Shown here piece by piece: positions 1-3,736 of a stretch of DNA of 4,509 bases. The position numbers and the translations under genes were made by a program. The notes beneath the pieces are model-generated. The model worked only from the letters and a program-made list of their open reading frames with translations, had not been told where the DNA came from and ran no database searches. Location: IMG/VR virus record IMGVR_UViG_2690316115_000004; one strand, 5' to 3'. Every line of letters starts with the position of its first letter. The stretch's first letter is position 1. This stretch comes from a virus (taxonomy: Duplodnaviria; Heunggongvirae; Uroviricota; Caudoviricetes).

Positions 1-46
1 CTGCCCGTTGACGGACTTCAGGGGAAAAACGAGTATTTTTAGTCAT
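1..46 (-). CDS. IS3-family transposase OrfA, N-terminal 15 codons only (MTKNTRFSPEVRQRA...), continues beyond the left window edge
   Basis: Reverse complement of 1-46 translates to MTKNTRFSPEVRQRA, which I recognise as the N-terminus of IS629/IS1203 OrfA. The ATG lies 54 nt inside the element end, typical for IS3-family orfA. Confidence 0.7.
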   Translation of the reverse strand, partial: MTKNTRFSPEVRQRA

Positions 47-100
47 CCTGTTTACCTCTTTCTCAGGAAGTTTAGTCTCCAGGATTCCCGGGGCGGTTCA
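1..100 (-). mobile_element. Outward end of an IS3-family insertion sequence (IS629/IS1203-like), cut by the window edge; element terminus at position 100
   Basis: Reverse complement of 47-100 reads TGAACCGCCCCGGGAATCCTGGAGACTAAACTTCCTGAGAAAGAGGTAAACAGG, starting with the TGA typical of IS3-family termini and matching my recollection of the IS629 left end. It is followed on the minus strand by an AAGAGG Shine-Dalgarno and an ATG at 46-44. Identification is by recollection, not a database search. Confidence 0.75.
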
Positions 101-305
101 TGGAGCTGCGTTAATTCATTTTGTGGATGGGCTTGTGACGGATGGTTTTATTTTGCGTGCAAATGAATTTGTCACATCGTTGCCGTCTCTGAAAGAAGCT
201 GGGATTAAGGCTGGTTTTTCTGCTTTTGAAGATTAGTGAATTCATCTACAATTCAGCGCAGGGCTGAACCCCTGTTGAGTAACACTGTGCCACCGGAGAA
301 AGCCG

Positions 306-584
306 ATGGCGCAAAATTCCAGACTACACAATTCTGATAATTCAGCCGTCTTTGCCAGCAGGCACGGGCGGCGTTCTCATGCATTCAAATCTGACTGGTT
401 CCGGCACGCCCCATGCACTGAAGAACAGGCCGAATGGCTGATTCAGAACTACCGCAGACGTGGGTATGAGTTTAGGAAAGCCCTCAGCCTCGATTATCGT
501 CACTGGATAATCTACGTCAGGCTGCCGTACTCCGAGCGCCCACCGCGTCCGTCCCGCACATTCCAGCAACGCATCTGGAGGTAA
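306..584 (+). CDS. Hypothetical phage protein (92 aa), function not recognised
   Basis: ORF from the six-frame track. GGAGA at 294-298 sits 7 nt upstream of ATG 306. TAA stop at 582-584 lies 1 nt before the start of the next gene, suggesting translational coupling in a nin-region-like operon. Confidence 0.5.
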   Translation: MAQNSRLHNSDNSAVFASRHGRRSHAFKSDWFRHAPCTEEQAEWLIQNYRRRGYEFRKALSLDYRHWIIYVRLPYSERPPRPSRTFQQRIWR

Positions 585-585
585 C

Positions 586-1641
586 GTGCGGGTATTACTT
601 CGACCTGTTCCGGTACCGGAACTTGGGTTGGTGGTCCTTAAACCAGGCCGTGAATCCATGCAGGTATTCCATAACCCTCGAGTGCTTGTGGAGCCGGAAC
701 CGAAAAGCATGCGCGGTCTGCCGTCCGGCATCGTCCCTGCCGTTCGCCAGCCGCTGGCGGAGGATAAATCATTACTGCCGTTTTTCAGCAATGAGCGTGT
801 GATTCGTGCTGTTGGTGGCGCTGGTGCACTGTCTGACTGGCTGTTGCGTCATGTCAAATCCTGCCAGTGGCCTCATGGTGACTATCATCACAGTGAAACC
901 GTTATTCACCGTTATGGTACCGGCGCAATGGTGTTGTGCTGGCACTGCGACAACCAGCTGCGTGACCAGACATCCGAATCACTCGAGCAACTTGCTCATC
1001 AAAACCTGTCAGCATGGATGATTGACGTCATCGGTCACGCAATAAGCGGTACGCAGGAGCGTGAATTATCTCTGGCTGAATTATCCTGGTGGGCGGTCCG
1101 CAATCAGGTGGCGGACGCGCTACCGGAAGCGGTATTACGTCGTTCGCTGGGGTTGCGTGCGGAAAAAATCCGCTCAATGTACCGTGAAAGCGACATCGTA
1201 CCGGGAGAGCAGACCGCCACCATCATACTGAAGCAGCGCACAAAAAATCTTGCGCCGCTGCCTCACGCCCACCAGCAAAACCCGCCACAGGAAAAGACGG
1301 TGGTCAGCATTGCCGTTGATCCGGAGTCACCGGCTCAGTATCTCCAGCGCCAGAAACCACAACGGGAAGAGATGCCTGTATACACGCGCTGGGTAAAAAC
1401 GCAGAAATGCATGACGTGCGGTAATCAGGCAGATGATCCGCATCACATCATTGGTCATGGACTGGGAGGGATGGGAACAAAGGCTGATGATTTGTTTGTT
1501 ATTCCGCTGTGCCGTAAATGTCATAACGAACTGCACGCTGGGGTAAAAGATTTTGAAGAAAAACACGGCAGCCAGCTGTTGTTGCTGATTCGTTTTTTAA
1601 TGCACGCGAGAAATTCGGGTGTCCTGAAGTGGAAAGCATGA
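586..1641 (+). CDS. DUF968-like prophage protein (YdfU-like) with two Cys/His HNH-like clusters
   Basis: 351-aa ORF. C-terminal CMTCGNQADDPHHIIGHGLGG...CRKCHNELH is an HNH-type CxxC...H...CxxCH motif; an earlier C..HGDYHH...CWHCDNQL cluster resembles a second copy. GTG start at 586 with GGAGG at 577-581; ATG 658 is an alternative start. Position directly upstream of rusA matches lambdoid prophages. Confidence 0.7.
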   Translation: MRVLLRPVPVPELGLVVLKPGRESMQVFHNPRVLVEPEPKSMRGLPSGIVPAVRQPLAEDKSLLPFFSNERVIRAVGGAGALSDWLLRHVKSCQWPHGDYHHSETVIHRYGTGAMVLCWHCDNQLRDQTSESLEQLAHQNLSAWMIDVIGHAISGTQERELSLAELSWWAVRNQVADALPEAVLRRSLGLRAEKIRSMYRESDIVPGEQTATIILKQRTKNLAPLPHAHQQNPPQEKTVVSIAVDPESPAQYLQRQKPQREEMPVYTRWVKTQKCMTCGNQADDPHHIIGHGLGGMGTKADDLFVIPLCRKCHNELHAGVKDFEEKHGSQLLLLIRFLMHARNSGVLKWKA

Positions 1642-2007
1642 ATGACTGAACGGATAGAATTTGTTTTGCCTTACCCGCCGACGGTGAATACCTACTGGCG
1701 ACGTCATGGCAATACGTATTTCATCTCGGAAGCCGGAAAGCGTTATCGCCGTGATGTGGCGCTAATTGTTCGCCAGCAGCGGCTGAAATTAAACCTGTCC
1801 GGAAGGCTGGTGATAAAGATTATTGCAGAGCCACCGGATAAGCGCCGTCGTGACCTGGACAATATCCTGAAAGCACCACTGGATGTGCTGACGCATGCCG
1901 GACTTCTCATAGACGACGAGCAGTTTGATGAAATCAATATTGTGCGCGGTCAGCTCGTTCCTGGTGGGCGGCTGGGGATAAAAATCACAGAACTGGAGTG
2001 CGCATGA
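1642..2007 (+). CDS. rusA: Crossover-junction endodeoxyribonuclease RusA (Holliday junction resolvase)
   Basis: 121-aa ORF MTERIEFVLPYPPTVNTYWRRHG...DKRRRDLDNILKAPLDVL...DDEQF...GGRLGIKITE. The size and the RRRDLDN acidic motif match RusA as I remember it. ATG 1642 immediately follows the upstream TGA (1639-1641). Confidence 0.85.
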   Translation: MTERIEFVLPYPPTVNTYWRRHGNTYFISEAGKRYRRDVALIVRQQRLKLNLSGRLVIKIIAEPPDKRRRDLDNILKAPLDVLTHAGLLIDDEQFDEINIVRGQLVPGGRLGIKITELECA

Positions 2008-2693
2008 ATAACCACTATTTACAGTTTGTGCGTGAGCAGCTCATTATCGCCACCGCTGATTTGAGTGGGGCAACAAAAGGTCAGCTTGAAGCCTGGCAGG
2101 AGAATGCCATGTTCGATACAGGGCGTTACAGGCGAAAAAAAATCCGGTACCGCGATGAAGTGACTGGAAAAATGATAACGCGGGATAATCCACCAATCCC
2201 GGGAAAGCAATCGCTGGCGAAGGTGACGTCAATTCCTCTGGTCAGTCCGGTTGAGTTTTCGACATCATCGTGGCGGCGGGCTGTTCTGTCTCTTGAAGAA
2301 CATCATAAAGCCTGGTTGTTGTGGTGTTACAGCGGGAGTATTTGTTGGGAATATCAGATCGCGATAACACAGTGGGCGTGGAATGAATTTAATACTCAAT
2401 CCGGTACCAGAAAAATTGCTGGGAAAACGCAGGAACGCCTGAAAAAATTAATCTGGCTGGCGGCGCAGGCAGTAAAAGCAGAACTTTTTGGTGGGGAAGG
2501 TTATGAATATCAGGAGCTGGCATTACTGGCGGGAGTGACAACTAAAAACTGGTCCAAAACATTTACTCGTCACTGGGTTGCAATGAAACACATTTTTCAC
2601 CGACTGGATAGTGAGGCTTTATTATTTGTAATGAGAACACGTTCAAAACAAAAGGCGGCATTTTCAAAGCAAAGTGTTGCAAAAGTAGATTGA
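2004..2693 (+). CDS. Putative late-gene antiterminator (Q-like), assigned mainly by position
   Basis: ORF ending TGA 2691-2693. ATG 2004 overlaps the rusA stop (ATGA) with GGAG at 1995-1998; the track starts it at GTG 1998. It sits between rusA and the promoter/tRNA/terminator module, where lambdoid phages encode Q. I cannot confirm Q-family membership from sequence alone. Confidence 0.5.
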   Translation: MNNHYLQFVREQLIIATADLSGATKGQLEAWQENAMFDTGRYRRKKIRYRDEVTGKMITRDNPPIPGKQSLAKVTSIPLVSPVEFSTSSWRRAVLSLEEHHKAWLLWCYSGSICWEYQIAITQWAWNEFNTQSGTRKIAGKTQERLKKLIWLAAQAVKAELFGGEGYEYQELALLAGVTTKNWSKTFTRHWVAMKHIFHRLDSEALLFVMRTRSKQKAAFSKQSVAKVD

Positions 2694-2756
2694 AAGGCAT
2701 ATGTTTCATGCAAATCTGATATTTTGCCGATTTTGTACGTGATGGCAAAAGCAAAC

Positions 2757-2784
2757 AAAACCCGCCCACAAGCGGGTTTTGTTG
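2757..2784 (+). terminator. Intrinsic terminator-like hairpin downstream of the Q-like gene, flanked by A-tract and T-tract (possibly bidirectional)
   Basis: AAAACCCGC (2757-2765), loop CCACAA, GCGGGTTTT (2772-2780), then GTTGTG. A 5-bp GC stem extended by A:U pairs with a U-rich 3' tail. Confidence 0.55.
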
Positions 2785-2787
2785 TGC

Positions 2788-2836
2788 CACTTATCTCGGA
2801 TAGACATGGTGAATGCGCTGGTGGAGGAGATAAGGG
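2788..2836. repeat. Inverted repeat (CACTTATCTC ... GAGATAAGGG) separated by 29 nt, just upstream of the promoter -35
   Basis: 2790-2797 CTTATCTC is the exact reverse complement of 2827-2834 GAGATAAG; the match extends to 9 of 10 over 2788-2797 versus 2827-2836. Function unknown; could be an operator or RNA structure. Confidence 0.4.
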
Positions 2837-2850
2837 TGATTTTTGTATGC

Positions 2851-2879
2851 TTGCAACATTGATTTCGTAACGTTATTAT
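2851..2879 (+). promoter_or_regulatory. Near-consensus sigma70 promoter (TTGCAA, 17-bp spacer, TATTAT) driving the tRNA cluster; candidate late promoter PR'
   Basis: -35 TTGCAA at 2851-2856, 17-bp spacer, -10 TATTAT at 2874-2879, with a T-rich stretch upstream. Predicted start around 2886, 2-3 nt before the first tRNA. Assignment as PR' is inference from position downstream of the Q-like gene. Confidence 0.55.
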
Positions 2880-2888
2880 CCTGCGCCC

Positions 2889-2964
2889 GGCCCTTTAGCT
2901 CAGTGGTGAGAGCGAGCGACTCATAATCGCCAGGTCGCTGGTTCAAATCCAGCAAGGGCCACCA
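2889..2964 (+). tRNA. ileZ: tRNA-Ile2 (anticodon CAU, lysidine type; formally also readable as Met), ileZ-like
   Basis: Manual cloverleaf: acceptor GGCCCTT/AAGGGCC, D-arm GCTC-AGTGGTGA-GAGC, anticodon loop CTCATAA (CAU), T-arm GCTGG-TTCAAAT-CCAGC, discriminator A and encoded CCA. 76 nt, closely resembling E. coli ileX as I recall it. Confidence 0.85.
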
Positions 2965-2965
2965 A

Positions 2966-3041
2966 CCGCCACTAGCCATCAGGAAAGAGCGTCAACCCTT
3001 TAAGTTGAGTGTGCGAGGTTCGAGTCCCCGGTGGTGGTCCA
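2966..3041 (+). tRNA. tRNA-like element in the argN slot, probably degenerate or a pseudo-tRNA (apparent anticodon UUU with C at position 33 and a weak D-stem)
   Basis: Exactly 76 nt between the flanking tRNAs. Acceptor CCGCCAC/GTGGTGG (one G-U), perfect anticodon stem TCAAC/GTTGA with loop CCTTTAA, T-arm CGAGG-TTCGAGT-CCCCG (one mismatch) and terminal TCCA. The D-stem has two mismatches and position 14 is not A. Confidence 0.4.
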
Positions 3042-3054
3042 TTATCGGTATTCT

Positions 3055-3128
3055 GCGTTGTTAGCTCAGCAGGACAGAGCAATTGCCTTCTAAGCAATCG
3101 GTCACTGGTTCGACTCCAGTACAACGCG
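3055..3128 (+). tRNA. argO: tRNA-Arg (anticodon UCU, reads AGA/AGG), argO-like; CCA not encoded
   Basis: Manual cloverleaf: acceptor GCGTTGT/ACAACGC, D-arm GCTC-AGCAGGACA-GAGC, anticodon stem ATTGC/GCAAT with loop CTTCTAA (UCU), T-arm ACTGG-TTCGACT-CCAGT, discriminator G followed by CTA rather than CCA. Confidence 0.85.
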
Positions 3129-3144
3129 CTACACTTATTTTCCC

Positions 3145-3168
3145 GGCTCGCTTTTGCGGGCCTTTTTT
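3145..3168 (+). terminator. Rho-independent terminator after the tRNA cluster (candidate tR')
   Basis: GGCTCGC (3145-3151), loop TTTT, GCGGGCC (3156-3162), a 7-bp stem with one U-G, followed by TTTTTT (3163-3168). Confidence 0.7.
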
Positions 3169-3211
3169 GTATCTGCGCCACGCCCGGCGCATACCAACCA
3201 CAGAGCCTTTC

Positions 3212-3221
3212 GGGGGGGGGG
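3212..3221. repeat. G10 homopolymer tract in the intergenic leader upstream of the TerB-like gene
   Basis: Direct read: C then ten consecutive G at 3212-3221. Long G runs are uncommon in enterobacterial DNA and are slippage-prone. Confidence 0.9.
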
Positions 3222-3303
3222 AGCTTACGGAGTGGTCAGTGTGACTTTCTCTGTGGGCAGATCGCTCCCGGGCGTTGGCTCACCCACCCAAAGGAACGTC
3301 ACG

Positions 3304-3736
3304 ATGTTTGGTATTTTGGGTAAAAAAAGCCCGCAGAGCGGCAACGGAAATTAAAAAGTTTGAAAAACGCGATCTGGCACAGGTGGTGATTAACGCCGCC
3401 TACCTGGTGGCCTGTGCAGATGGTGAATGTGAGGCTTCCTAGAAAGCGAAGATCGAACAGGTACTGCGTAATCAGCCTGCGCTGTACGCGTTTACGTCAG
3501 AAATTAATGCGATTAGCGCAACCATTATCGGTCAGCTGGATACGAACTTTAAAACTGGTCGTCGTGCGGCGTTACGTGAGATCGAGGATGTGAAACACGA
3601 TACGCGTGAAGCGGAAGATGTGCTGGATGTGGCGGTGGCCATTGCGGAGGCAGACGGCGAAATTGAGCCGGAAGAGCGCAAGGTGCTGGAAGAGATTGCC
3701 GGTGTTCTGGGTCTTCGTCTGGAGAATTACCTGTGA
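3304..3736 (+). pseudogene. TerB-like (tellurite-resistance TerB superfamily) gene, apparently disrupted by a +1 frameshift in an A7 run (3322-3328) and an in-frame TAG (3440-3442)
   Basis: AAGGA (3291-3295) sits 8 nt upstream of ATG 3304; this frame gives MFGILGKKSPQSGNGN then TAA at 3352-3354. The next frame from 3329 reads ARRAATEIKKFEKRDLAQVVINAAYLVACADGECEAS-TAG-KAKIEQVLRNQPALYAFTSEINAISATIIGQLDTNFKTGRRAALREIEDVKHDTREAEDVLDVAVAIAEADGEIEPEERKVLEEIAGVLGLRLENYL, ending TGA 3734-3736. The ADGE...E and AEADGEIEPEE segments look like the paired TerB motifs. Deleting one A restores a continuous frame from the ATG. Confidence 0.55.

Follow-up and report, generated by a model that had tools for sequence, protein, structure and literature searches.

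The locus raises two questions: whether the insertion sequence at its left edge interrupts a gene of the prophage that it borders, and what the insertion does to the phage genes on its right as far as the late-gene antiterminator Q. The whole stretch of DNA analysed, 4,509 nucleotides, is referred to as the window. On the evidence of sequence comparison, the window very probably shows one end of an IS629 copy that lies inside rem of a PPompW-type, Qin-related lambdoid prophage, in an STEC/EPEC-like Escherichia coli, with rem inactivated and the downstream genes intact.

The IS629 end and the interrupted gene

Positions 1-100 of the window, on the minus strand, are the left end of IS629 (100 bases; IRL side, orfA-proximal), cut by the window edge, with the remainder of the element beyond it. 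Their reverse complement is identical (100/100) to L006 2191-2290, which are bases 1-100 of IS629 in the record LC567828 (Enterobacteria phage PPompW_EH2201); the mobile element is labelled there by its authors as 'insertion sequence: IS3 family IS629'. The same end is found with 100/100 identical bases in O145 strain 95-3192, with 99/100 in strain E2 and with 96/100 (4/100 bases differ) in O55:H7 DEC5E. The terminal inverted repeat, IRL, occupies 76-100 on the minus strand and reads TGAACCGCCCCGGGAATCCTGGAGA; in the full IS629 copy of LC567828, 23/25 terminal bases agree between IRL and IRR. Ends of the form TG...CA are typical for the IS3 family.

Read on the minus strand, window 1-100 starts with TGAACCGCCCCGGGAATCCTGGAGACTAAAC, and a purine-rich stretch then leads to the ATG at 46 that opens orfA. 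Of this IS629 gene the window contains the initial 15 codons (2-46, minus strand), which run out of it leftward. Their peptide, MTKNTRFSPEVRQRA, is identical to the N-terminal 15 residues of the OrfA annotated in LC567828. The orfA start lies about 54 bp inside IRL, as expected for IS629; the product is a helix-turn-helix protein, of which 15 codons are within the window. The preliminary description had placed an IS629-like terminus at position 100, with orfA reading leftward out of the window, and both statements are borne out by the match to the annotated end, by the inverted repeat that finishes at 100 and by the OrfA peptide.

IS629 is a member of the IS3 family, 1,310 bp in length, and transposes by the copy-out/paste-in route. 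Its orfA and orfB are connected by programmed -1 frameshifting and encode a transposase with a DDE (rve) domain, features that every related copy inspected possesses. The IS end seen here is present at thousands of E. coli genome sites, up to about 50 per genome; PGAP names for these copies are IS3-family, IS1203 or IS629 transposase. The target duplication made by IS629 is reportedly 3-4 bp, and 62% of the IS629 copies of O157 are harboured by prophages (PMC3271280).

On the other side of the boundary, window 101-700 is identical (600/600) to L001 6001-6600, which belongs to a lambdoid prophage of E. coli E2865 that lacks the interruption, and matches 10 published PPompW prophage records with 100% identity. 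Leftward of 101, zero bases continue the match to the uninterrupted sequence, so the break coincides exactly with the end of the inverted repeat (100/101). BLAST E-values for both halves of the junction are about 1e-44 or better, which rules out chance for the IS end and for the flank.

By homology, the split gene is rem, a prophage gene of unknown function and a homologue of K-12 Qin b1561. The intact counterpart in E2865 is an 86-codon CDS, WP_000984523.1 (L001 5876-6136, PGAP annotation). Its translation is (L)MRIEELREIFSEDGLYTVRVEKGAIVSHCRIKCLQSQQRKS|GAALIHFVDGLVTDGFILRANEFVTSLPSLKEAGIKAGFSAFED, the bar marking the point from which the window matches (codon 42, phase 2). Window 102-236, plus strand, holds the 3' remnant, codons 43-86 and the stop, identical to the C-terminus of WP_000984523.1. 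A stop-free frame at 102-236 had been suspected earlier to be the C-terminal part of a gene divided by the insertion. The frame encodes 44 aa followed by a stop, the same peptide as was then given, and equals the last 44 residues of the 86-codon product; the suspicion was correct.

Full-length WP_000984523.1 shares 72% amino-acid identity with K-12 Qin Rem (b1561) over the entire length. The intact gene is assigned to PF27490 'Rem' in precomputed Pfam tables, the remnant matches phrog_340 (E = 4.5e-11), and the depositors of the PPompW records call the gene rem. In local copies of Pfam and NCBIfam, neither Rem nor the 92-aa ORF that follows it matched a family.

The remnant frame extends back into the IS up to a stop at 9-11, and the first start after it is a GTG at 123, with a purine-rich Shine-Dalgarno sequence absent upstream as judged by eye. 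The earlier remark that the frame has no plausible start agrees with this. An ORF that would fuse IS sequence to the remnant was rejected, given the stop at 9-11 and no start before 123. The remnant is, as read from its frame, a pseudogene fragment and not a complete ORF. Since the 44 C-terminal codons are left without a start, rem is inactivated. The gene is dispensable in this strain, as the IS629 insertion shows.

The 37-aa ORF from the GTG (123-236) was used in a lookup as a marker of truncated rem and returned one draft contig, AETY01000157.1. This contig was rejected as a carrier of the same junction: spacing between hokD and rem is normal and an IS gene is absent. The 37-aa C-terminal rem ORF is called there alone (L018 8001-8114), probably because of a frameshifted rem, or else of a sequencing error.

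Downstream genes and their transcription

The genes listed in the preliminary description as lying downstream (92-aa ORF, DUF968 gene, rusA, Q-like gene) are present, intact and on the plus strand, the Pfam matches among them being full-length. The first whole gene after the IS is the 92-aa ORF WP_010917803.1 (306-584), of unknown function, annotated as a CDS in L001 and matching phrog_1212 (E = 1.5e-36). It is followed by a ydfU-type DUF968/HNH-like gene (586-1641; Pfam DUF968, E = 1.6e-63), by rusA, encoding a Holliday-junction resolvase (1642-2007; Pfam RusA, E = 5.6e-15), and by Q, the late-gene antiterminator (1998-2693; Pfam Phage_antiter_Q, E = 1e-90). In K-12 MG1655 Qin (L007 ~2306-2651, minus strand) an intact, clearly homologous frame of the 92-aa ORF is located between rem and ydfU; at that locus a gene is absent from the NC_000913.3 feature table.

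Along 4.4 kb, 8 substitutions and a single change in the length of a G run separate the window from E2865. Within ydfU, 4/8 of these substitutions fall in 19 bp (window 1521-1539), a cluster more suggestive of a small patch of recombination than of separate point mutations. The G run is G10 at window 3212-3221 and G13 in E2865. Three adjacent tRNA-like genes are located after Q, at window 2889-3129, and are identified by ARAGORN as Met(CAT), Lys(TTT) and Arg(TCT). In the same region of E2865 the first is annotated by PGAP as Ile and the third as Arg; the middle one (Lys, TTT) has no PGAP call and so may be degenerate or unusual. Beyond the tRNAs come a pseudogene of the TerB family, a DUF3927 gene and the first part of a SASA esterase gene. 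The TerB-family gene (window 3275-3736) is split by an in-frame TAG (3440-3442), and its counterparts in relatives carry a pseudogene annotation.

In intact relatives the module is arranged on one strand as cro, ydaT, dnaT-like, P, DUF1627, paa, hokD, rem, 92-aa ORF, ydfU, rusA, Q. The genes in the window thus form the end of a lambdoid P-to-Q ('nin-position') module, a same-strand series ending in Q with replication genes upstream in relatives. Lambda nin gene families were not detected in the window module, and rem is no lambda nin gene. The earlier term 'nin/Q operon' is therefore kept as a positional label for the interval between P and Q, and is dropped as a statement of gene content. In intact relatives the immediate upstream neighbour of rem is hokD, a hok/sok toxin locus with an intrinsic terminator behind it. 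The sok antitoxin RNA gives a strong Rfam match upstream of hokD (103.9 bits; L001 5356-5505, outside the window). A weak match to isrK, an sRNA of Salmonella Gifsy-1 (24.9 bits, E = 0.006, below the gathering score; L001 5667-5748, likewise outside the window), overlaps the hokD terminator just 5' of the rem-Q module.

The left end of IS629 abuts rem in codon 42, with the transposase genes facing away from the downstream phage genes, and the sequences of the 92-aa ORF, ydfU, rusA and Q are untouched. A rightward transcript that began at the early promoter or in the spacer between hokD and rem would, in this arrangement, first have to pass through some 1.3 kb of IS antisense strand. A consensus scan of window 1-700 detected no promoter-like sites on the gene strand, the sole promoter-like match there being at 520-493 and pointing the opposite way, and a scan for terminator-like sites in window 1-700 detected none. 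A full IS629 copy in the same orientation contains one weak terminator-like hairpin on the relevant strand, not above shuffled sequence. Neither an outward promoter at the end of the IS nor a terminator carried by it scored above what shuffled sequence yields in the consensus scans. With no outward promoter and no strong terminator detected, a polar effect receives no support from the sequence.

In intact phages the hokD terminator is already located between the early promoter and rem. Read-through must therefore need antitermination or a promoter-like site in the hokD-rem spacer, and a local promoter-like site is found in that spacer at L002 4713-4742. It had been proposed that the IS could uncouple the downstream genes from the phage early promoter. 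Such uncoupling of Q and its neighbours is plausible, and is reasonable because 1.3 kb of antisense IS would separate the early promoter from the genes; if the far side has been deleted, uncoupling of Q would be certain. We infer a reduced expression of the downstream genes by the IS. The insertion in rem may help to silence the late genes that depend on Q.

The far side of the element

The readings that compete with a simple insertion concern what lies beyond the left edge of the window. On simple transposition, TGG at 101-103 is the predicted target-site duplication, its second copy being outside the window; a 3-bp duplication is predicted because related simple insertions carry duplications of that length (AAC, GAT, TAA). 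In that case ...AAAGGAAGAGTGG (or ...GTGGA) would be expected to abut the right inverted repeat of this IS629 copy, and with a TGG duplication ...CAACAAAGGAAGAGTGG would be expected ahead of the 1,310-bp element. Among related junctions, five classes represent simple insertions, of which four have a clean 3-bp duplication and the fifth an imperfect one: O55:H7 DEC5E (duplication AAC), O157:H7 ECP19-598 (GAT), O157:H7 NE1092-2 (3-bp duplication), PPompW_EH2201 (TAA) and 28RC1 (imperfect duplication, C(T/A)C).

The strongest competitor, held to have somewhat under an even chance, is an IS-associated deletion or a recombination between IS copies, after which IS629 would join the rem remnant to unrelated DNA. 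Such an event would entail loss of the 5' half of rem, of hokD, of paa and of the replication/immunity region, and would cut Q off from the early promoter. Four related classes in the same orientation as the window are without a target duplication (O145 95-3192, O121 RM8352, strain E2, 90-3040), which speaks for it. The far flank in this group is a truncated exonuclease gene in 3/4 and a truncated DUF977 gene in E2, so the immunity and replication region has been lost. Among same-orientation classes in complete genomes, 3/6 have lost the phage region upstream of rem (immunity, replication) at the IS. Deletions adjacent to IS629 in the presence of the IS-excision enhancer have been reported (PMC9943667). 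The five other classes near rem, being simple insertions, weigh on the opposite side, and the window itself is silent on the far side of the IS. Judged from this mix of related junctions, simple insertion and far-side deletion would be nearly balanced, with a slight lean towards simple insertion. A nested adjacent deletion starting from the O145 or O157 junction is not favoured: the rem alleles and one IS end differ by several substitutions, which recombination could mask.

It is improbable that window 1-100 is a solo or truncated end of IS629 that an earlier rearrangement left behind and that does not belong to a functional element. Partial copies are reported among the 47 catalogued IS629 sites of O157 (PMC3271280), but full-length copies that look active have the same 100 bases without a difference, the element measures about 1,310 bp in 9/9 of the related junction classes inspected, and the transposase annotation is intact in 8/9 of them (the 90-3040 copy is marked frameshifted). 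The element is taken to be full-length.

The exact junction is absent from 5,426 complete E. coli genomes (megablast with window 1-160, 1-200, 1-700 and the whole window), and exact-pattern scans found the right junction in none of the GTDB representative genomes, metagenome contigs and viral contigs. A left junction of the predicted form, in which 3 or 4 bp (TGG or TGGA) are duplicated, is likewise absent from GTDB representatives and from metagenome and viral contigs. Contigs encoding the 92-aa protein were considered as junction carriers and rejected; rem is intact in them, or IS629 occupies a different site (28RC1). A misassembly, in which a contig ending in a collapsed multicopy IS was misjoined to rem, is very improbable: the window begins 100 bases into a repeat with up to about 50 sites per genome, where short-read contigs typically stop, and a second example of the junction is absent from the collections searched, but the inverted repeat is complete to its final base at the break, which is true of real transposition and not of random mis-joins, and genuine spanning reads are normally needed for an assembler to extend into a repeat.

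Clustering around rem and known relatives

At least 10 distinct IS629 boundaries are located in about 350 bp, L001 5663-6014 (hokD stop to rem codon 46), 9 of them within 184 bp. Seven have the orientation of the window and three the opposite one; five represent simple insertions and four border a deleted early region; the lineages are O157, O55, O145, O121, poultry and others. Queries of one design, a 100-nt IS end plus 100 nt of target, were applied to three regions and found the parts joined in 34 genomes for rem (6 junction classes, all counts here being of same-orientation classes), in 1 genome for the ydfU control (1 class) and in 3 genomes for the Q control (2 classes), the comparison being crude in that target copy number and sequence conservation differ between the rem, ydfU and Q regions. 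Several of the rem-region boundaries may be deletion end points and not insertion points, and selection could also favour events here. That the stretch from the hokD stop through the first half of rem is a regional hot spot for IS629 is a tentative and rather doubtful proposal. An analysis of 47 sites described IS629 as having no sequence-based target preference (PMC3271280). If the cluster reflected target choice by the transposase, and not selection or target copy number, it would contradict this published view, and would supply a defined substrate for studies of regional targeting in the IS3 family. Clustering of IS629 around rem is the sole aspect of the locus that might repay systematic study.

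The element, the gene and the phenomenon are all already known; the exact junction is a previously uncatalogued allele among the collections searched. It adds a further IS629 polymorphism to those of defective prophages that carry effectors, a type of variation already exploited in strain typing by IS-printing. Because none of the collections searched contains it, the junction could be used to mark a lineage or strain. IS damage of this sort is ordinary in the defective prophages of Shiga-toxin-type E. coli. All PPompW prophages examined are defective, with IS insertions and deletions (PMC8112680).

In K-12 Qin the homologous rem (b1561; 72% identical in amino acids) likewise lies between hokD and ydfU; in K-12 the gene is intact and IS629 is absent there. 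In O55:H7 DEC5E and O157:H7 ECP19-598 an IS629/IS1203 copy is present in the same prophage module and in the same orientation as in the window, 32-45 bp upstream of the rem start, so rem stays intact. O145 (95-3192 and relatives), O121 (RM8352 and relatives) and poultry strain E2 share with the window the orientation, an IRL that abuts a 3' remnant of rem, and the 92-aa ORF, ydfU and Q after the remnant. Their junctions are upstream of that in the window (O145 by 71 bp, O121 by 13 bp, E2 by 11 bp), and the O121 and E2 prophages are Qin-like, with only ~82-87% DNA identity. The far flank in these three is a truncated exonuclease or DUF977 gene without duplication, which indicates a deletion with loss of the early region.

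The closest known case is PPompW_EH2201 (LC567828; Nakamura et al., PLoS Pathog 2021, PMC8112680), with the same prophage type, the same gene, the same IS and an identical flank. Its rem is annotated as 'interrupted by IS629, target site duplication TAA'. The insertion is 11 bp further into rem (L001 6012-6014 versus 6001) and opposite in orientation to that in the window; the full element and the TAA duplication are visible in PPompW_EH2201, whereas the window shows one end alone. E. coli UTME-3 carries the same rem::IS629 junction as PPompW_EH2201.
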